From assembly GCA_050014195.1 (NCBI GenBank), contig JBEKDT010000014.1:75967-139966 (forward strand): DNA of 64,000 nt, written 5' to 3'. Position numbers and translations under genes: made by a program. The notes beneath the pieces are model-generated. The model was given only the letters and a program-made list of their open reading frames with translations, did no database searches and was not told the origin of the DNA. This DNA is from Desulfomonilia bacterium (GTDB taxonomy: Bacteria > Desulfobacterota > Desulfomonilia > UBA1062). Below, piece after piece: positions 17,129 through 53,093 of this stretch (within the stretch, counting starts at the first letter, position 1; each line of letters starts with the position of its first letter).

Positions 17129-17677
17129 TTACTCGTCTTGGAGGATAACCTTTGACAAGTCTGGCCTGGCCCGAGGGAGGGTGATTTGTATTCGAGTCCC
17201 GGCAGGTCCGCTTGCAGGGTCGGCGTTTGATTCGATGGTCAAATTGCCAGAATGTAATTTCACGGCCCCATAGGCGAACGGCAGCCCCAGGCCTGTCCCC
17301 TCACCAACGGGTTTTGTGGTGAAAAAGGGGGTGAAAAGCTTGTCCATATTCTCTCTCGAAATACCCCTGCCGGTATCTTGAATTATAATGACGACCTGGT
17401 CAACGCCACCTTGAACGCTTACAGCCAGTTCGCCTCCGTCCGGCATGGCCTCTATGGCATTGGTCTGAAGGTTCACCAGTGCCTTGAAGACCCGTTCTTC
17501 ATCAATCCAAACCGAAGGGTCTGAAATATCCGTTGTCATTGATATTCGGATGTTATCCGGCTTTGGTAGGCTCCGGATGCTCTCTTCAGTCAGGGCGACG
17601 ATATCCGTCTCCCTGCGTTTCAACCCCTGCAGGGCGGATTTTATATTTTCTTCATAATCAATGATATTCCTATCCAT
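17129..17677 (-). CDS. Stand-alone HATPase_c domain (histidine-kinase catalytic domain lacking HisKA)
   Basis: NAIEAM, DTGRGI, FFTTKPVGEGTGLGL boxes; no H-box. Confidence 0.75.
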   Translation of the reverse strand: MDRNIIDYEENIKSALQGLKRRETDIVALTEESIRSLPKPDNIRISMTTDISDPSVWIDEERVFKALVNLQTNAIEAMPDGGELAVSVQGGVDQVVIIIQDTGRGISRENMDKLFTPFFTTKPVGEGTGLGLPFAYGAVKLHSGNLTIESNADPASGPAGTRIQITLPRARPDLSKVILQDE

Positions 17678-40973: not shown

Positions 40974-40985
40974 TTGACCGTTACA

Positions 40986-41037
40986 AAGGGATGGAGTTCC
41001 CCTGACAAACGCCCGGGCCGGGCTGATAACTCCTACC
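40986..41037 (+). ncRNA. Fluoride (crcB) riboswitch #1
   Basis: GGGATGGAGTTCCCC...AAACGC...GCTGATAACTCCTAC matches the crcB consensus. Confidence 0.85.
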
Positions 41038-41378
41038 ACGCGGCGGTAGAGTTGAAGCTGTGCGTCCGCATCATGGCCCAGGAGGTGTTTGTCTCATGAC
41101 TTTCCACAGCATATTATTTGAAAGAACTGAAGATAGCACAAAAAAAGAATCGCTTGAAGCGCCCGCCTTTTTTGTTGATTTGAATCTTGATCAGGTTATC
41201 GACACCATCACGGCCGGCAGGAAGGAATATAATTTAAAGCCGTTTTTTTACACTTCCCTGTCCGATATCGACACGATCAAGTATCGTCATGAAATAATGC
41301 AGGATCTGGAAAATAAAACGGAAGTATGTACTTTACGCAATAATTGCTCTTTCATCCCCAATGCCTCCATCTGGTGCC

Positions 41379-41528
41379 TTACTTACTTTGGCCCTTTGAT
41401 GGTTTTTTCTTTTTCAATGATTCCTTGACTGCGTCCTGCCAATCGCCATCAATTTTAAGTAATTTAGGTTTTGGACCAGGGGCCGTAATTTTGGCTCTAC
41501 GCCTCTTTGTATGACAGATATCACTCAT
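41379..41528 (-). CDS. Small basic IS passenger peptide (49 aa)
   Basis: [49 protein letters not shown] with AAGGGAG RBS; below the ORF-track cutoff. Confidence 0.55.
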
Positions 41529-41706
41529 GCCGTATGTTCTCCCTTATGTAACTGCTGGCATAATTACTATTGACAGTTACGGCAAAGGTTATTAAGCAGA
41601 AGACAACCATGATGGCATTTCTTATGGATCGGATGGAATTTCCTTGTATTTCAATATCAATGGTGATACAGTAACGACAGGTCAAATAAATGGGAGGTGA
41701 TGATTT

Positions 41707-42120
41707 ATGAGTTTCGAGATTTTCTCTCGCAAAGCAACATATCGTGGAGTCCCGTCTGTAACGTTTACGAAGACAGGCCGAATGGCATTTAATAAGGCCG
41801 CAACTGCTATCTTTGAAAAGAATGCAGTGGAGAACGTCCTCCTGCTGTGGGATAAAGACAAACGACTTATTGGGGTGCGGCCCATAACTAAGAAGGATAA
41901 CCGGGCTTATTTTGTGAGCGCTGGGACTAGAAAAAACGGGTGTGGATTCACAGCAATGACTTTTGTTAAGTACATTGGACTTGATATTTCGAGTTCTAGG
42001 GCTTTTCCTACCCGTTGGGATGAGCTGGAAGAAATGTTTTTGATTGAAGTGCCGGAAGAATATCTTAATAAGGATGGTGTCCCATCGAAGGGAAAAAAGA
42101 AACCAACTGAGGGAGCCTAA
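41707..42120 (+). CDS. Hypothetical IS passenger protein (137 aa)
   Basis: Strong GGGAGGT RBS; no family recognised. Confidence 0.7.
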   Translation: MSFEIFSRKATYRGVPSVTFTKTGRMAFNKAATAIFEKNAVENVLLLWDKDKRLIGVRPITKKDNRAYFVSAGTRKNGCGFTAMTFVKYIGLDISSSRAFPTRWDELEEMFLIEVPEEYLNKDGVPSKGKKKPTEGA

Positions 42121-42195
42121 AAAATGTCTGCTGTAAAGACAGAAACCCCCTGATGCTGTAACATCAGGGGGCACATCAAAGAAAGGAGGAACGAC

Positions 42196-42285
42196 ATGTG
42201 CTGTAGGGTTCATCGTTCCACCAAGAGGATTGTGGTTACAATCCGTTTAAAATGGATTGAAATCACAATTGTCTTTCCTCCATAG
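42196..42285 (+). CDS. 29-aa peptide MCCRVHRSTKRIVVTIRLKWIEITIVFPP
   Basis: AAAGGAGG RBS 6 nt upstream; flanked by hairpins at 42145-42170 and 42312-42336. Confidence 0.5.
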   Translation: MCCRVHRSTKRIVVTIRLKWIEITIVFPP

Positions 42286-42348
42286 GGCCTAACGGCTCTT
42301 TGGGGAAGCATGCCGGAGAGCACTGCGCTCTCCGGCCTTTAACTACAA

Positions 42349-42447
42349 GCGGGCGTGGCGGAATTGGAAGACGCGCTGGCCTTGGATGCCAGTGGGTGCC
42401 TTGCTTAAGGGATAACACCCGTGCGGGATCGAAGCCCGTCGCCCGCA
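42349..42447 (+). tRNA. tRNA-like gene: Leu-type body, anticodon TGG (Pro), 30-nt variable region, no encoded CCA
   Basis: Acceptor GCGGGCG/CGCCCGC + A73; D-arm TGGCGGAATTGGAAGACGCG; anticodon arm CTGGC-CTTGGAT-GCCAG; T-arm GCGGG-ATCGAAG-CCCGT. Confidence 0.8.
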
Positions 42448-42493
42448 TCTTTATATATAAAGATAGCATCGTTTTATCATTTTGTCAAAAATT

Positions 42494-43480
42494 TCATATA
42501 ACCTTTAAAGATGTATCTTTTGGAGACTTATACATCAACCGTTTTCCCTCAGCTGAATGTATGGCTCTGATTACACGATCACCATCATTCAATGTACGAT
42601 TATTCCAAATAAAGTCAAATTGCCAGAGATAACGATGAAGATGTTCATGGCTGACATTATGGTAGATTCCAACTATCCCACGTTTTACAACTGCGAAGGA
42701 TGATTCGGCTGTATTGGTATGAACATCTCCACGAACATATTCATGCGTGGAATGACATACTTTATCATGACCGCCCATAAAGAAGGAACCAATTCCTCTG
42801 TATGCTTTATAATCATCTGTGATAATACGTGATCTAACATCTACTTCTTGTTTTATGGCTGAATGTAATGTTTCTCCTGTAACGTCTGCTACGACACGAC
42901 GTCTAATATGACCATTTCTTTCGACGGCTGCAAATACAGGAGTTTTGCTTGTCCCGCGACCTCGTTTATGTATCTTCCCATCTCCATAACGAGGCTTACC
43001 ACCTATATAGGTTTCATCACATTCGACTATTCCATTAAGTTTTTCTGTATTAGAATCTGGTGCCATTGCATAACGGATTCTATTCATCAGAAACAATGCC
43101 GACTTGTAACTAATCTGACAATGTCGCTTAATTTCCAATGCTGCTACACCTTTCTTTGAGGTTGAGGCTCTCCAAAATGCATAACACCAATGGCGAAGAT
43201 CAATCCGCGATTCTTGATATACTGTTCCAATTCTGACAGTATATTGATTGTTACAATCCCGACAACGCCACAAAAAACGCTTATTCCGCATCCCAGTTTT
43301 AGAATCACTCATTTTGTATACTTGTGTACTTCCACAATGAACACAGGTCGGCTTATCTCCCCATCTCTGCTTTTCAAAGAACTCAACGGCTGCTAGTTCA
43401 TCGCAACAAGCTAATGGCATATCTTCAATAATGTCAGATTTTGCTAAATTCGAATGGTCGATTTTTTTATTTTTCTTCAT
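42494..43480 (-). CDS. IS1595-family transposase
   Basis: Zn ribbon CVHC...CRDC, VECDETYIGG, IITDD, VHTNTAESSF, HLHRYL. Confidence 0.93.
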   Translation of the reverse strand: MKKNKKIDHSNLAKSDIIEDMPLACCDELAAVEFFEKQRWGDKPTCVHCGSTQVYKMSDSKTGMRNKRFLWRCRDCNNQYTVRIGTVYQESRIDLRHWCYAFWRASTSKKGVAALEIKRHCQISYKSALFLMNRIRYAMAPDSNTEKLNGIVECDETYIGGKPRYGDGKIHKRGRGTSKTPVFAAVERNGHIRRRVVADVTGETLHSAIKQEVDVRSRIITDDYKAYRGIGSFFMGGHDKVCHSTHEYVRGDVHTNTAESSFAVVKRGIVGIYHNVSHEHLHRYLWQFDFIWNNRTLNDGDRVIRAIHSAEGKRLMYKSPKDTSLKVI

Positions 43481-43488
43481 ATATTAAT

Positions 43489-43516
43489 ATTATACTTAAC
43501 GCAAAGCATTTGTCAA
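43489..43516 (-). promoter_or_regulatory. Consensus sigma-70 promoter of the transposase (near-leaderless)
   Basis: TTGACA-16 bp-TATAAT on the minus strand; ATG 8 nt after the -10 box. Confidence 0.7.
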
Positions 43517-44879
43517 GGGGCAAATGATATTTTTTAGCGTTTGCGTAAAGTACATACTTCCGAAATAAAATTCTCTTTGAGAATATAAAAACATTTGCAC
43601 AAGAAATGCGCGCAATGCGACAGCATCTTGCCCTGGTGGAAGAGCTTCACTACAAATACCACAAGGAAGGATGGTTTTTAGAAACAATAGATATTTATTG
43701 TGAAGCCGTTCATCGCCTGGTACACGAGTTAACCCTTGCAGATTTAAAATCGCGCGGCTTTTTAGCCTTCCGGGAGTATATAACGAACTATGCCAGATCC
43801 GACCATTTTATGTCCCTTTTAGCTGAAACGAAAAAGCTTAAAGCCGATTTATCCGCCGTAAAGTATTGCCTGCTCATAAAGGATAACAGCATCAAGGTTT
43901 GCACATATGAATCCGGAATTGATTACAGTGCAGATGTGGAGCAGACATTCGAGAGATTCAAACAGGGAGCGGTGAAAGATTACCGGGTCAAATTTTCCAC
44001 CGGGCCTGAAATGAACCATGTTGAAGAGAGAATACTGGATCAGGTAGCCCGATTGTATCCCAATATATTTTTAAGTCTCGATGATTATTACGCGAGGAAC
44101 GGCAATTTTCCAGATGAAACGATAGCCGTTTTCGACCGGGAGATACAATTTTACATCGCCTATCTGGAGCATATCGCACAATTCAAGCGAGTGGGATTAA
44201 AATTTTGTTATCCGAAAATTTCTACCCAGTACAAGGAAGTGTATGATTATGAAGGATTTGATTTAGCACTGGCCAATAAACTCATGAGTGAGAACTCATC
44301 CATTGTCTGCAATGATTTCTACCTGAAAGACAAGGAACGCATATTTGTAATATCCGGTCCGAATCAGGGAGGGAAAACAACCTTCGCCCGCACCTTCGGA
44401 CAGTTGCATTATCTGGCTACCATAGGTTGTCTCGTCCCAGGCAGAGAAGCACAACTCTTTTTGTTCGACAGGCTCTTTACCCATTTTGAAAAGGAGGAAC
44501 ACATCGAGAATCTCCGTGGTAAACTGCAGGATGACCTCGTCAGAATCCACAAGATTCTCAATCAGGCCACATCAAACAGTATTATCATAATGAATGAAAT
44601 TTTCACTTCCACAACACTAAAAGACGCTATTCTCCTGGGTAAGAGGATAATGGAAAAAATAATACAATTGGATTTGCTGTGCGTTTGCGTGACATTTATA
44701 GATGAACTGGCTTCTTTAAGTGAAAAAACCGTAAGCATGGTCAGCACGGTAGTTCCCGAAAATCCGACATTGCGAACATATAAAATAGTAAGAAGGCCTG
44801 CCGACGGACTTTCATACGCGATATCAATCGCCGAAAAGTATCGACTTACCTACGATTGTTTGAAGGAGCGGATAAAATC

Positions 44880-46451
44880 ATGAAGGCTTTCCTCATGTAT
44901 AAGGATCGTGATTTTGATCTCCAGCAGGAGTTGCCATGGAATGAACAAGCATTGACACAAGACCTGGAATTAAACACACTGTTTTCTGCCATGGCCCTCG
45001 GCAACACATTTTTGTTTGAAGTGGCAAAGAACGCTGTTTTGACCGGTTTCCATAATGATCCGGACACAATACGATATCGCCAAGATATTCTAAAAGATTG
45101 TCTGAAGAACTCTTCCATTGTGAGGGATATCTACGACATTGCTGTGGAAGCAATCGAAAGCAAGAGAAAACATTGGTATGGCATATTCAGACATGATTCT
45201 CCCACCTCGATACTGCATACTTCATTAGAAAAAATGCAGACATTTGTGGGCCTGCTTAAAAAAATAAAGAATATTGCTGATGAACACGCCGATAAATTCG
45301 AGTCGGAAGGCTTTAGGGCGTTCTTCGCGATGTTCGAAAAAGAACTTGGCGATGAATATTTTGCAGGCGTTCAACATCATCTAAGGGCGCTCAAATTCCG
45401 CAAAGGAGTTTTGATCAGTGCTGAATTGGGAACAGGCAACAAAGGTACCAATTACATACTTCATGAAACACACGAAAAAAAGCAGAGTTGGATGGAGTGG
45501 ATCTTTGCCGGAATACAGAGTTGGATGGAGCAGATCTTTGCCAAAAAAACGACCGGTTACACCTTTTATATCAGTGAACGTGATGAAAGCGGCTTCAGGG
45601 CCTTGGCAGGATTAAGAGACAGGGGGATCAACCACGCAGCCAATGCTCTCGCCCAATCTGGTGATCATGTTCTTAATTTCTTTATCATGTTGCGGACCGA
45701 ATTGGCTTTTTACGTTGGTTGTCTGAATTTACACGGGCACCTTGCCAAAAAAGGGGAGCCCATATCTTTCCCTCTGCCCGCGGCTCCCGGCGAACGCAGA
45801 CATTCTTTTCATGGATTATACGATGTCTGTCTGGCTTTAAACCTGGAACAAAGGATTGTGGGCAACGATGTGAATGCCGACAATAAAAACCTCGTGATAA
45901 TCACAGGCGCCAACCAGGGCGGCAAATCAACTTTTTTGCGAAGCATAGGTTTATCCCAATTGATGATGCAATGCGGCATGTTTGTGCCGGCTGAGTCTTT
46001 CTGTTCCAATGTCTGTGACGGTATTTTCACACACTACAAAAGGAAAGAAGACGTTACCATGAATAGCGGGAAACTTGATGAAGAACTCGGTAGAATGAGC
46101 GCTATCGTAGACAACATAACGGCAAATCCCATGATACTGTTAAATGAATCATTTGCCGCGACAAACGAAAGAGAAGGCTCGGAGATTTCAAGGCAGATAA
46201 TGTGTGCATTATTGGAAAGGCACATCAAGATTTTCTTCGTTACTCATGTATATACATTTGCGCATGGTTTTTATGACAAAAAAATGGAAAACGCCATTTT
46301 CTTGCGGGCTGAAAGGCAAAGCGACGGAGGACGAACTTTTAAAGTAATTGAAGGCGAACCATTGCAAACCAGCTATGGCGAAGATTTGTATAACGGGATA
46401 TTCGAAACCGACGCAAGCACTAAGGTGCGGGAGGCGCTGGACAGTGAATGA
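44880..46451 (+). CDS. MutS-like (domain V ATPase) protein B
   Basis: ATGA overlap with protein A; [30 protein letters not shown]. Confidence 0.88.
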
Positions 46452-46682: not shown

Positions 46683-47972
46683 TTATTTCTTCACGCTGTA
46701 CAGAACGTCCTTACCCCTGAATACTGCACTTTCCCCTAATTCTTCTTCGATGCGCACGAGCTGGTTGTATTTGGCAAGGCGCTCGCTCCGGGAGGTTGAC
46801 CCTGATTTGATTTGTCCGGTACAGAGACCGACTGCAAGGTCGGCAAGCCATGGGTCCTCGGTCTCACCCGAGCGATGGGATATGACCGTGGTGAACCCGG
46901 CCCTCTTGGCGGTTTCAATAGTTTGCATTGTCTCAGTGATCGTTCCTATCTGGTTTACCTTGATGAGTATGGAGTTGGCACAACCCTCCTCAATGCCGCG
47001 TTTCAGGTACTTCATATTGGTTACGAAGATGTCGTCGCCCACGATCTGTACTTTATTGCCAAGGCGTTTCATGAGGAGTTGCCAACCGTTCCAGTCATTT
47101 TCCGCGAGGCCGTCTTCTATGGAAACGATAGGGTACTTCTTGACCAGCTCCTCATAAAAGTCGATCATCTCTTCAGAAGTCCTCTCGGGATCTTTTTCAG
47201 AGGCCAGGATGTATTTGCCGTCCTTATAGAACGAGCTTGCTGCAGGATCGATGGCAATTGCTATATCCTTACCCGGTTTATAGCCTGCCTTGCTGATGGC
47301 TTCCACGATGAGATCAAAGGGCTGGGTGTTATTCTTCAGATTCGGGGCGAAGCCACCCTCATCACCTACCCCTGTGCTGTAGTCATTTTTCTGGAGGATA
47401 TCCCGCAGGGCATGGAACGTCTCGGCTGCGTAGCGCAGGGCTTCTCTGAAATTCGGTGCGCCGATGGGTGTGACCATGAACTCCTGGAGGTCTACATTGT
47501 TGTCTGCGTGCTTGCCCCCGTTGATGATGTTCATCTGCGGAACCGGAAGCTCCCGGGCAAGGGCGCCGCCCAGATATCGATAGAGAGGGACACCAATGAA
47601 ATTAGCAGCTGCCCTGGCTGAGGCTATGGAAACACCTGTTGTGAGGTTGGCGCCGAGAACGGACTTGTTTTCCGTTCCGTCCAGTTCGATAAGCATGGAG
47701 TCAATGCCCGCCAGGTCCAGCACATCCATGCCGACAAGCTTGGGTGTCACGATCTTGGTCACGTTCTCCACAGCCTTGAGTACGCCTTTGCCCCGGTATC
47801 TCTTCTTATCTTCGTCCCTCAGCTCTACGGCCTCGCTTTCCCCCTTTGATGCACCAGAAGGAACCGATGCCCTACCCATTTCACCTGTTGAAAGGTGAAT
47901 GTCTATCTCAATGGTCGGATTACCCCGTGAATCTAAAATTTCCCTTGCAGCGACAGTAACAATCTTACTCAT
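46683..47972 (-). CDS. eno: Enolase
   Basis: [43 protein letters not shown]. Confidence 0.96.
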
Positions 47973-48685: not shown

Positions 48686-48707
48686 ACATTCTCCTTCAGA
48701 TTTCTCT

Positions 48708-48757
48708 GACAGGAGTCATCAGCCTACCCGGCGGTTATGGGGGACTCCATCCCTGAT
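48708..48757 (-). ncRNA. Fluoride (crcB) riboswitch #2
   Basis: Minus strand GGGATGGAGTCCCCCATAACCGCC...GGCTGATGACTCCTG. Confidence 0.88.
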
Positions 48758-48900
48758 CTTCGTTAAATGTGTACTGTATTAAGGGTAAAGCTGTCAATCA
48801 CGAGCTGGAACATTCCATTAACCTCTCCAGCCGGAAATATCATTACCCTTGAGCACGTTTTATACTCTCGCCTTACAGGTTTCTTCATTCATCAGTACAC

Positions 48901-52813: not shown

Positions 52814-52835
52814 ATACGCTCCTTCAGATCTCTCT

Positions 52836-52886
52836 GAGAGGAGTCATCAGCCTGCTTGGCGGTTAAAAGGGGGACTCCATCCCCAA
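52836..52886 (-). ncRNA. Fluoride (crcB) riboswitch #3
   Basis: Minus strand GGGGATGGAGTCCCCCTTTTAACCGCC...GGCTGATGACTCCT. Confidence 0.88.
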
Positions 52887-53093
52887 TTCGGCAAAGGATA
52901 TGTATCGCGCAGAAACGAGATTGTCAATGTTGAATCATGAACAATGATTCGGACACATTGGCTGGCATGAAACTGAAGGACCTTGTTGCGTTCCGGGATC
53001 ATCCCCGGTATCCTTTTTTTTAAAGAATTCATATTGTCCGGGATGTAATACTTTACTGTGCTGGCAATAGTATATCCTTTAGGAAGGTACCCC

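Follow-up and report, generated by a model that had tools for sequence, protein, structure and literature searches.

A conserved leucine-type tRNA with a UGG proline anticodon carried as cargo by an IS1595-family insertion sequence

What is a tRNA with the body of a tRNA-Leu and the anticodon of a tRNA-Pro doing inside an insertion sequence? The question is raised by a locus on contig JBEKDT010000014.1 of a Desulfomonilia bacterium (the host), within a 64,000-nucleotide stretch that was analyzed as a whole and is referred to here as the window. An initial annotation made from the sequence alone had described the locus as an IS-borne chimeric tRNA. The comparative analyses described below indicate that the tRNA gene is genuine and conserved, that it descends from tRNA-Leu and has UGG as its fixed anticodon, and that a single IS1595 lineage passes it on as cargo, along with a set of conserved partner features (Table 1). 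For its function, the reading preferred here, at a probability of roughly one in three, is a tightly controlled tRNA that is charged by leucyl-tRNA synthetase (LeuRS) and reads CCA codons as leucine.

The Rfam tRNA model (RF00005) matches the locus over model positions 1–71 of 71, scoring 47.3 bits (gathering score, 29) with E = 5.7e-07 when the 64-kb window is searched, and accommodates the long variable arm as an insertion. Alignment and sequence define a 7-bp acceptor stem with G1:C72, the discriminator A73, and the residues U8, A15, and U48, whereas the T-stem comprises 5 bp and the anticodon loop, CUUGGAU, provides U33, UGG, and A37. In the variable region, an outer helix of 5 bp encloses an inner hairpin of 4 bp, and a 4-nt bulge lies on the 3' side. 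TCT follows directly 3' of A73, and CCA is therefore not encoded in the window copy. When the sequence is folded on its own by minimum free energy (MFE), the acceptor, anticodon, and variable arms form, but the D and T arms are missing (z = -2.13), which indicates that the cloverleaf rests on the covariance model and the homolog comparison rather than on thermodynamics. ARAGORN with default settings does not report the tRNA in the window, most likely because of the 30-nt variable region. Relaxing the program to -ps70 produced 123 calls in 56 short regions, mostly spurious and with the window still mis-called, and these calls were excluded from all counts.

The relationship to tRNA-Leu is apparent from the body. 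The D-arm differs from that of the host tRNA-Leu(UAG) at a single base, and the 5' half of the molecule is 88% identical. When the anticodon was masked, the top three host matches were all tRNA-Leu for each of the six distinct UGG sequences introduced below, a simple alignment against the tRNAs of one genome that provides a rough measure of body type. The cloverleaf with its Leu-type features, UGG, A37, A54, and the missing CCA, as well as the Leu-like body and the location within an insertion sequence, had all been proposed in the initial annotation and are borne out by these data and by the boundaries of the element described below.

Related loci (given L-labels) were compared with the window element. 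BLAST identifies the identical tRNA in two metagenome contigs, L053 and L054, which share the same insertion site and are not independent, as well as homologs at 83–85% identity in L056, L060, L062, and L070; in L153, ARAGORN calls a 99-nt "tRNA-Pro(tgg)". The UGG anticodon is present in all distinct homologous sequences (window, L056, L060, L062, L070, and L153), a set of only six of which four are close. An assembly error, random anticodons, or broken stems had been named beforehand as grounds for abandoning the chimeric assignment. None of these is seen, considering that the identical copies, the four diverged homologs, and L153 all read UGG, and that 98% of 150 pair cells across the six sequences hold standard pairs. 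In five pairs, both partners have changed. The observed values are not attained in any of 500 column shuffles, and sliding the pairing partners by one to three columns reduces the paired fraction to 37–54%. Almost every member has its own sequence in the inner helix of the variable arm, with the two-tier shape retained in all six and an A-rich bulge conserved within the arm. The 7/5 arrangement of acceptor and T-stem, which is canonical, is kept throughout, and U33, UGG, A73, and G1:C72 are invariant. Positions 32, 37, and 38 vary, with A, G, G, G, U, and A at position 37, and CCA is encoded in two of the six members (L060 and L153).

A covariance model built from the six sequences scored the window tRNA and its two copies, L056, L060, L062, and L070 at 106–117 bits in a search batch that excluded L152–L156, including L153. 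The next-best matches were a genuine tRNA-Leu(CAG) at 71 bits and a Leu-like UGA tRNA in L150 at 63 bits. No full-length match to the tRNA was found in 60 related genomes, where the 5' half alone matches ordinary tRNA-Leu genes, and a search of 401 genomes of the phylum returned, at E <= 1e-12, the host genome and no other.

The tRNA resides in a complete element with the features of the IS1595 family. Members of this family encode a DDE transposase with an N-terminal zinc ribbon, have short inverted repeats, generate an 8-bp duplication, and carry variable cargo. In the window, a DDE_Tnp_IS1595 transposase with a zinc ribbon, perfect inverted repeats, and an 8-bp target duplication are all present, and the insertion splits a gene for a MutS-domain-V protein. 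The transposase gene is preceded by a predicted promoter at 43516-43489 with 12 of 12 consensus positions. By BLAST, the element occurs once in the 4.2-Mb host assembly. Its left inverted repeat is identical or has one mismatch in L055, L056, L058, L062, and L153, and the same 22-nt ends (zero to two mismatches) bound elements of 3289 bp in L056 (duplication TAAAGCAT), 3618 bp in L062 (TATATTTT), and 2904 bp in L153 (AAATTCAT). Together with the window, this amounts to four fully bounded sites with different 8-bp duplications and element sizes of 2244–3618 bp; L070 and L058, each with one element end and other flanks, represent two partial sites. The related elements look recently active, judging from their perfect ends and the intact duplications at different sites.

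Every bounded element contains a homolog of a 137-residue protein (ORF137), the UGG tRNA, the transposase, and a 49-residue basic ORF. No Pfam or PADLOC family was found for the latter; its DNA shows the highest conservation of any block in the alignment of the left arm, and in the L153 element its homolog follows the transposase on the same strand. Additional cargo lies within the same ends in the larger elements, namely a DUF3800 protein (L056:4148-4924), three ORFs without a family (L062:4450-5632), and a DUF5678-like ORF with a retropepsin-like aspartyl protease (L153:4393-5202), the last region also giving weak matches to the PADLOC candidate PDC-M52B (E = 6e-06).

The UGG tRNA tracks the transposase lineage. 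It is present at five of five loci whose transposases are 69–82% identical to that of the window, and none was seen at 23 loci with transposases of 42% identity or less. In the class to which the host belongs, none of 29 other IS1595 transposase loci (36–52% identical) has ORF137 or an ARAGORN-detectable tRNA nearby. Given that the tRNA is missing from the relatives searched and the cassette from these loci, the element appears to belong to a special IS sublineage and to have arrived recently. In L153, ORF137 is only 37% identical to its window counterpart, which indicates that parts of the cassette have been exchanged.

Table 1. Positions of the tRNA, its cassette, and the surrounding IS1595-family element in the window.
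Feature	Position	Strand	Basis
MutS-domain-V gene, 5' part	41060-41318	+	Split by element; 3' part 43571-44883 (PF00488)
Target-site duplication, left copy AAATAAAA, 8 bp	41311-41318		Direct repeat
Complete IS1595-family element, 2244 bp	41319-43562		Inverted ends; related elements with same ends
Left terminal inverted repeat, 22 nt	41319-41340	+	Perfect match to right end
49-aa basic, lysine-rich ORF, divergent from ORF137 gene	41379-41528	-	Conserved across related elements
ORF137, 137-aa protein, predicted MraZ/B3-like (AbrB-type) pseudo-barrel	41707-42120	+	AlphaFold; structural search
Predicted minus-strand intrinsic terminator, G+C-rich hairpin then T-rich run	42146-42171	-	Terminator scan (stem 42172-42145)
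Leader ORF, 29 codons plus stop	42196-42285	+	Strong Shine-Dalgarno sequence (42182-42189); coding signature
Two conserved hairpins between leader and tRNA	42285-42298, 42312-42336	+	Fold; homolog alignment
Class II tRNA, 99 nt, Leu-like body	42349-42447	+	Rfam tRNA model; homolog comparison
Anticodon UGG	42383-42385	+	Sequence
Variable region, 30 nt	42393-42422	+	Sequence; fold
T-loop AUCGAAG (A54)	42428-42434	+	Sequence
Predicted sigma-70-type promoter (TTGACA, 17 nt, TATCTT), pointing into tRNA 3' end	42460-42488	-	
IS1595-family transposase, 328 aa	42494-43480	-	PF12762 (E 3e-36); PF12760 (E 3e-11)
Right terminal inverted repeat, 22 nt	43541-43562	-	Perfect match to left end
Target-site duplication, right copy AAATAAAA, 8 bp	43563-43570		Direct repeat

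Within the element, the conserved cassette is ordered as ORF137, a leader ORF that ends in Pro-Pro-stop, hairpins, and tRNA, with both a predicted promoter and a predicted terminator conserved on the other strand and overlapping the tRNA. ORF137, the leader, and the antisense promoter do not feature in the initial annotation. The 228-nt spacer between ORF137 and the tRNA (42121-42348) has a fold z of -9.55 relative to shuffled controls and is conserved in four close homologs. The leader ORF encloses a long hairpin (42227-42273) and ends in CCT CCA TAG in five of five UGG-lineage leaders, the window leader having the C-terminus Val-Phe-Pro-Pro. Its coding signature is visible in the proportion of synonymous changes, with 62 of 169 differing codon pairs in frame compared to 28 of 174 and 9 of 172 when the two alternative frames are read, and in the internal stops, of which there are 0 in frame compared to 9 and 2. 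In the second of the two hairpins downstream of the leader, a compensatory change is found in L070.

On the minus strand, the T-run flanks the predicted terminator hairpin on that strand only; alignment inspection shows a T-rich tract in all five close homologs, and the terminator stem covaries in L060. The corresponding promoter (TTGACA-17/18-TAnnnT) is conserved in five of five close homologs, its -10 box ending 12–15 nt from the 3' end of the tRNA. It is absent beside the tRNA in L153, and similar minus-strand sites occur at 4 of 27 other distinct cassette tRNAs. Transcription from this promoter to the terminator would yield a predicted antisense RNA of about 310 nt that covers the tRNA and leader. 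It is important to note that the promoter, terminator, and ribosome-arrest functions considered here are consensus or motif predictions. Two further candidates were rejected. A transcription attenuator is not consistent with the hairpin just upstream of the tRNA, which lacks a U-run in all five homologs, and a second tRNA-like fold in the leader (GGAGGAA/UUCCUCC) relies on a pairing that is unused in the MFE structure, in a region with a coding signature.

A simple model would be that a tRNA-Leu(UAG)-derived pseudogene was captured by an ancestral insertion sequence and has since been slowly decaying as a functionless hitchhiker. UAG is converted to UGG by a single transition, and the window copy combines A54, A37, and the lack of CCA; in addition, the element is single-copy here and absent from other genomes searched, so that selection in the host cannot be shown. 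Such decay is nonetheless improbable given that all five stems are kept in six distinct sequences despite diverged partner proteins (identities across the UGG loci of 62–73% for ORF137 and 69–82% for the transposase, and of 37% and 70%, respectively, in L153). Compensatory changes are found in the stems and the variable arm, the spacer, leader, and promoter around the tRNA are conserved too, and the apparent recent activity of the elements also argues against it.

A second issue concerns the amino acid that a functional tRNA of this kind would carry. Judged by synthetase identity rules, which derive from work in E. coli and may differ in the present host, the class II architecture, the Leu-type D-arm with its G18G19 placement, and A73, a LeuRS identity element present in all six sequences, are those of a tRNA-Leu, with UGG in place of the NAG or NAA anticodon. 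At the same time, G35 and G36 of the NGG anticodon and A73 are three of the main identity elements for E. coli prolyl-tRNA synthetase (ProRS). The pair C1:G72, an identity feature for bacterial ProRS, is replaced by G1:C72 in six of six members, whereas all three tRNA-Pro genes of the host start with a C that is paired to G72. Nor is the body of class I, considering the 30-nt variable region, and the window copy has A37 in place of G37. The initial annotation had counted both C1:G72 and G37 as missing tRNA-Pro marks; the former holds for every member, whereas G37 is absent from the window copy but present in three of the six. A serine identity is not indicated either. The discriminator rule for Ser tRNAs is G73, and the element tRNA combines A73 with a Leu-type D-arm and has its nearest host relatives among Leu rather than Ser tRNAs.

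Because G35, G36, and A73 are all in place, the tRNA could be charged by ProRS and act as a faithful proline tRNA that adds decoding capacity for CCA. UGG and A73 would then be expected to be invariant, as they are, and the three members with G37 resemble true tRNA-Pro in this respect. Mobile elements often carry tRNAs matched to their own codon use; CCA is the rarest Pro codon of the host (12% of Pro codons, 4.9 per 1000), but it makes up 5 of the 12 Pro codons in the two larger genes of the element, a tiny count, and it encodes the final proline of the leader motif in 36 of the 41 occurrences seen among the cassettes. This explanation is unlikely in view of G1:C72 and the class II, Leu-like body. 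The host already has tRNA-Pro genes with UGG, GGG, and CGG anticodons, and the anticodons of sister cassettes, which include UAU or GCA on Ser-like bodies, cannot be faithful.

Homologs of the partner protein mark related cassettes. ORF137 has no Pfam family and no PADLOC match, and a profile search against PDB sequences returned nothing meaningful; 43 homologs were found in a large protein collection. The AlphaFold model (pLDDT 79.6) predicts a twofold beta-beta-alpha-beta-beta pattern, and a structural search against representatives ranks MraZ (1n0e) first with Z = 6.3 (rmsd 3.2, 87 residues aligned), followed by plant B3 DNA-binding domains (Z = 3.8–4.4) and all others at 3.2 or below. Foldseek likewise places MraZ and B3 folds first, with weak scores (E = 0.05–0.3). 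Based on the predicted structure, ORF137 is probably an AbrB/MraZ-type DNA binder that serves as a regulator or antitoxin-like partner, an assignment of middling certainty.

A single-protein search of genome contigs yielded nothing, whereas scans based on an alignment of 29 ORF137 homologs identified 80 metagenome and 24 genome loci (104 in total). Named genome records with homologs are mostly Acidobacteriota, with single cases from Thermodesulfovibrionales, Syntrophobacteraceae, and a "delta proteobacterium"; the host genome has no ORF137 paralog elsewhere. In 8 of the 104 loci (L074, L076, L079, L081, L083, L086, L089, and L156), a gene for a 63-residue HicA toxin (PF07927) lies directly downstream of the ORF137 homolog at a distance of 90–155 nt, taking the place of leader and tRNA, and no IS1595 transposase is found at these eight loci. 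The arrangement is reminiscent of hicAB modules in that the ORF137 homolog occupies the upstream position where an antitoxin or regulator would sit. It differs in that ORF137 was not assigned to the HicB family in the searches done, and in that leader and tRNA replace the toxin gene in the window. A distant homolog on a plasmid was labeled "putative plasmid addiction protein" by its depositors and lies beside a "putative T/A toxin". In the plasmid collection, the leader-tRNA region has no DNA match, and no tRNA was found next to the two distant plasmid homologs of ORF137.

More generally, ORF137 homologs are frequently followed by tRNAs. Ten of the 104 loci have less than 350 nt downstream; among the other 94, a same-strand tRNA lies within 900 nt downstream of the homolog in 39, typically 80–300 nt away, a fraction that should be taken as a minimum only if ARAGORN and Rfam both miss irregular tRNAs. 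The remaining 55 have no downstream tRNA by ARAGORN or by Rfam at the gathering threshold, and several of these show sub-threshold irregular cloverleaves at the same offset with ARAGORN -ps80, which are weak leads. In addition to the 99-nt UGG tRNAs (seven loci, nearest body tRNA-Leu), the sister tRNAs include UAU anticodons at 14 loci (11 distinct sequences of 87–96 nt, nearest host body tRNA-Ser), GCU or ACU anticodons at nine loci (74–77 nt, nearest body mostly tRNA-Arg, weakly), a GCA tRNA in L132 (97 nt, nearest body tRNA-Ser), a UGA tRNA in L150 (87 nt, nearest body tRNA-Leu), and a few cases with UGU, GAC, and CGA. C35 and U36, which are kept in GCU and ACU, are identity elements for arginyl-tRNA synthetase. 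Several sister tRNAs also encode CCA. At the level of sequence, the sister cassettes point to anticodon swaps that would preserve tRNA identity.

Leaders are a recurrent feature of these cassettes as well. Among 87 distinct loci with sufficient sequence, 40 have small ORFs with RGPP, RPPP, RDPP, or Leu/Phe-Pro-Pro-stop motifs between ORF137 and the tRNA, compared to 7 of 87 when the reverse complement is scanned for the same motifs. In the leaders of UAU-type cassettes (L073, L078, L084, L088, L090, L096, and L134), the Ile codon in Phe/Tyr-Ile-Ala-Arg-Pro-Pro-Pro is ATA in seven of seven cases, the L078 motif having Pro-Gln-Pro in place of Pro-Pro-Pro, and this codon matches the UAU anticodon of the ARAGORN-called tRNA that follows in L073, L088, L090, and L134. 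However, ATA is conserved also in RGPP leaders, whose tRNAs have other anticodons, and the link is uncertain. A general rule by which a leader codon corresponds to the downstream anticodon in every cassette was considered and is weakened: it fits UGG, UAU, and perhaps GAC (GUC), and it fails for GCU, where no AGY codon is present, and for L105.

Some cassettes contain tandem tRNAs, with a 71-nt GCA tRNA followed after 14 nt by the 99-nt UGG tRNA in L153 (2970-3153) and a 73-nt UGC tRNA followed by a 76-nt GCU tRNA after the ORF137 homolog in L068 (1099-1371). They recall the irregular tRNA polycistrons described in the text of an earlier survey (PMC5389517). The host itself has, on contig C20 (4253-4326, minus strand), a 74-nt irregular class I "Ser(cga)" tRNA with an encoded CCA that closely resembles the CGA tRNA following an ORF137 homolog in L142.

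Taken together, these data are consistent with the preferred reading, a LeuRS-charged tRNA that translates CCA as leucine under tight control. Transcription of the cassette would start on the ORF137 side, RNase P and 3' trimming would free the tRNA, and the CCA-adding enzyme of the host would complete its 3' end. That the host cell adds CCA itself follows from its own tRNAs, 6 of which (including Lys-UUU and Leu-UAA) lack an encoded CCA among 52 ARAGORN calls, the other 46 encoding it. LeuRS, which is anticodon-blind in bacteria, would recognize A73, the Leu-type D-arm, and the tertiary core, and the charged tRNA would read CCA, and perhaps other CCN codons, as leucine at a low level. The small share of CCA among host Pro codons would limit the damage from misreading. 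Such a tRNA would be harmful in excess, so that its output would be held down. Restraint may be exerted by the MraZ-like protein at the level of transcription, by the antisense RNA, and possibly by the behavior of ribosomes on the leader, and the structured spacer, the predicted antisense promoter, and the pairing of ORF137 homologs with HicA may be read as signs of such control. In this view, the transposon carries a regulated cassette along with it, and the tRNA would be the toxin-like effector half.

Several observations weigh against translation of CCA as leucine, and some of them weaken the inference of Leu at CCA/CCG codons in the initial annotation. G35, G36, and A73 could recruit ProRS, in which case no mistranslation would result. 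T-loops are non-canonical in four of the six members, with A54 in the window and L056 and C55 in L060 and L062, and canonical only in L070 and L153, which suggests that the elbow, required in tRNAs that are active on the ribosome, is under less selective pressure. The window copy has A37 and not the G37 that is usual for anticodons ending in G36. Since 52 of 99 alignment columns are invariant, three invariant anticodon columns would arise by chance with a probability of about 15% and are, alone, only suggestive; likewise, all five double changes in the stems come from L153, the most distant member, and represent few independent events. The fold assigned to ORF137 from its predicted structure is of middling strength. 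Finally, of the related allo-tRNAs, allo-tRNA-UAU gave no suppression in E. coli in six of six constructs, two of which were lethal, and G-1 tRNAs from similar polycistrons were charged but unused in translation, as described in the main text of that study (PMC5389517).

Alternatively, the molecule might be a tRNA-like RNA that does not decode. It might provide a processing or stability signal, with cleavage by RNase P or RNase Z shaping the ORF137-leader transcript or the antisense RNA, or, in line with the fallback offered in the initial annotation, it might bind a synthetase, a toxin that cuts tRNAs, or ORF137 as a decoy or regulator and never enter the ribosome. The deviating T-loops, the oversized variable arm with its conserved A-rich bulge, and the negative E. 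coli results reported for allo-tRNA-UAU in the text of PMC5389517 would all be accommodated, as would the location of the tRNA between converging transcription units, where the predicted antisense RNA covers it fully, and the HicA toxin found in its place at other loci. Taken jointly, these two variants are only slightly less probable than the preferred reading. A processing signal alone requires no invariant anticodon, U33, 7-nt loop, or A73, and no CCA of the kind encoded in two members. A structural role would not explain why sister bodies favor isotypes whose charging survives an anticodon swap, and the L153 element has retained the tRNA without the antisense promoter and the leader.

An extension of the preferred reading, LeuRS charging with decoding of CCA, would make the cassette a transposon-carried mistranslation device that measures its own output. 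In this scheme, the terminal CCA of the leader would act as the sensor. With Pro-tRNA at this codon, the ribosome would linger at Pro-Pro-stop (or at the Pro-Pro of RGPP and RPPP in sister leaders), its occupancy over the adjacent hairpins would set the amount of tRNA released, and the Leu-charged UGG tRNA would relieve the stall. Such a device is speculative and rather improbable. In a wider view, ORF137 and the leader might constitute a plug-in socket that has repeatedly been filled by anticodon-swapped tRNAs with Leu, Ser, or Arg-like bodies, the swapped tRNAs acting as the toxin-like arm of an addiction or defense module.

The closest known relatives are the allo-tRNAs of Acidobacteria and other soil bacteria, which have 8/4 or 9/3 branches of 12 bp and many non-cognate anticodons, UAU being the commonest, and which were reported near transposon-related and toxin-antitoxin genes (Mukai et al., Nucleic Acids Res 2017; main text of PMC5389517). 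Some of them insert serine at non-Ser codons in E. coli (PMC5389517; PMC7609411), and the latter, a 2020 review, repeats the points made in the original study. The resemblance is in natural bacterial tRNAs with long variable arms, in the mismatch of anticodon and body, and in the linkage to transposons and toxin-antitoxin genes. Moreover, the UAU sister tRNAs described above, which come from Acidobacteriota assemblies, very likely belong to the same group. In contrast to the 8/4 or 9/3 allo-tRNAs with Ser identity, the element tRNA has a 7/5 arrangement, A73, a Leu-type D-arm, and UGG. In the main text of PMC5389517, the terms UGG, LeuRS, tRNALeu, proline, and "insertion sequence" do not occur, nor does that text describe an IS1595 vehicle, a 137-residue partner, a Pro-Pro leader, or an antisense promoter, although its Figure 4A and supplements may show related maps.

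The tRNAProX/ProRSx pairs of Streptomyces and relatives are another case in which anticodon and charged amino acid disagree, and regulated mistranslation has been proposed for them (PMC10404621, in the text available). The direction is opposite, with a Pro-accepting tRNA reading non-Pro codons through a dedicated second synthetase (PMC10404621). The element described here has no synthetase gene and combines a Leu-type body with a Pro anticodon, and that text does not report tRNAProX as transposon cargo.

Class II bodies that carry a foreign anticodon are also represented by the nev-tRNAs of nematodes. LeuRS and SerRS, the classic anticodon-blind synthetases, ignore the anticodon, and human and yeast anticodon variants of tRNA-Leu, tRNA-Ser, and tRNA-Ala combine anticodon-blind bodies with a foreign anticodon, as outlined in sections of a 2024 mistranslation review (PMC11415595) in which "allo-tRNA" and "transpos" do not occur. 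The same logic could let LeuRS load leucine on the UGG tRNA; however, the nev-tRNAs and these variants are eukaryotic and chromosomal, are not mobile, and lack dedicated partner genes. RAPP and RGPP are ribosome-arrest motifs in short upstream ORFs that regulate protein-localization genes (PMC12992588, PMC10951233, in the portions available). Sister leaders with RGPP, RPPP, or RDPP just upstream of a tRNA resemble them, whereas the window leader, Val-Phe-Pro-Pro-stop, has no Arg-Ala/Gly, and the examples in those portions do not control a tRNA.

Literature searches on IS1595 and tRNAs and on insertion-sequence passenger tRNAs returned no report of a tRNA as conserved cargo. Natural tRNAs with a mismatch of body and anticodon, loosely tied to mobile and toxin-antitoxin genes, are thus already known; new are the 7/5 Leu-type body with UGG, the precisely bounded, evidently active IS1595 carrier, and the defined set of conserved partners. 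Few natural tRNAs combine an anticodon and an identity that disagree, and almost all of those known are chromosomal, whereas a tRNA that is standard cargo of an active insertion sequence would render a decoding change movable between genomes in a single transposition. Should it be charged with leucine, the tRNA would be a natural Pro-to-Leu mistranslator capable of horizontal transfer; otherwise, it would be a conserved mimic of a tRNA that plays a part in the biology of transposons or toxin-antitoxin systems. The partner set, comprising a DNA-binding-type protein, a Pro-ending leader, and an antisense promoter, makes regulation directly testable, and ORF137, a marker of more than 100 cassettes from bacteria of soils and sediments, provides a way to approach the allo-tRNA-UAU group, whose function has been an open question since 2017. 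For tRNA engineering, the long and tolerant variable arm may be of interest as well.

Further features were noted in the window. At 17158-17249 (plus strand), ARAGORN calls a "tRNA-???" with a two-base anticodon that has no Rfam tRNA match at the gathering level and is probably a false positive. The gene interrupted by the element is the first of two tandem genes for MutS-domain-V-type ATPases (43606-44883 and 44856-46451, plus strand). Three fluoride riboswitches score 44.5–49.8 bits, at 40978-41042 (plus strand), 48703-48763 (minus strand), and 52831-52893 (minus strand). The second of these lies upstream of an enolase gene (46683-47972, minus strand), and the first is located just upstream of the split MutS-like gene, which indicates that the insertion cuts a fluoride-controlled gene.

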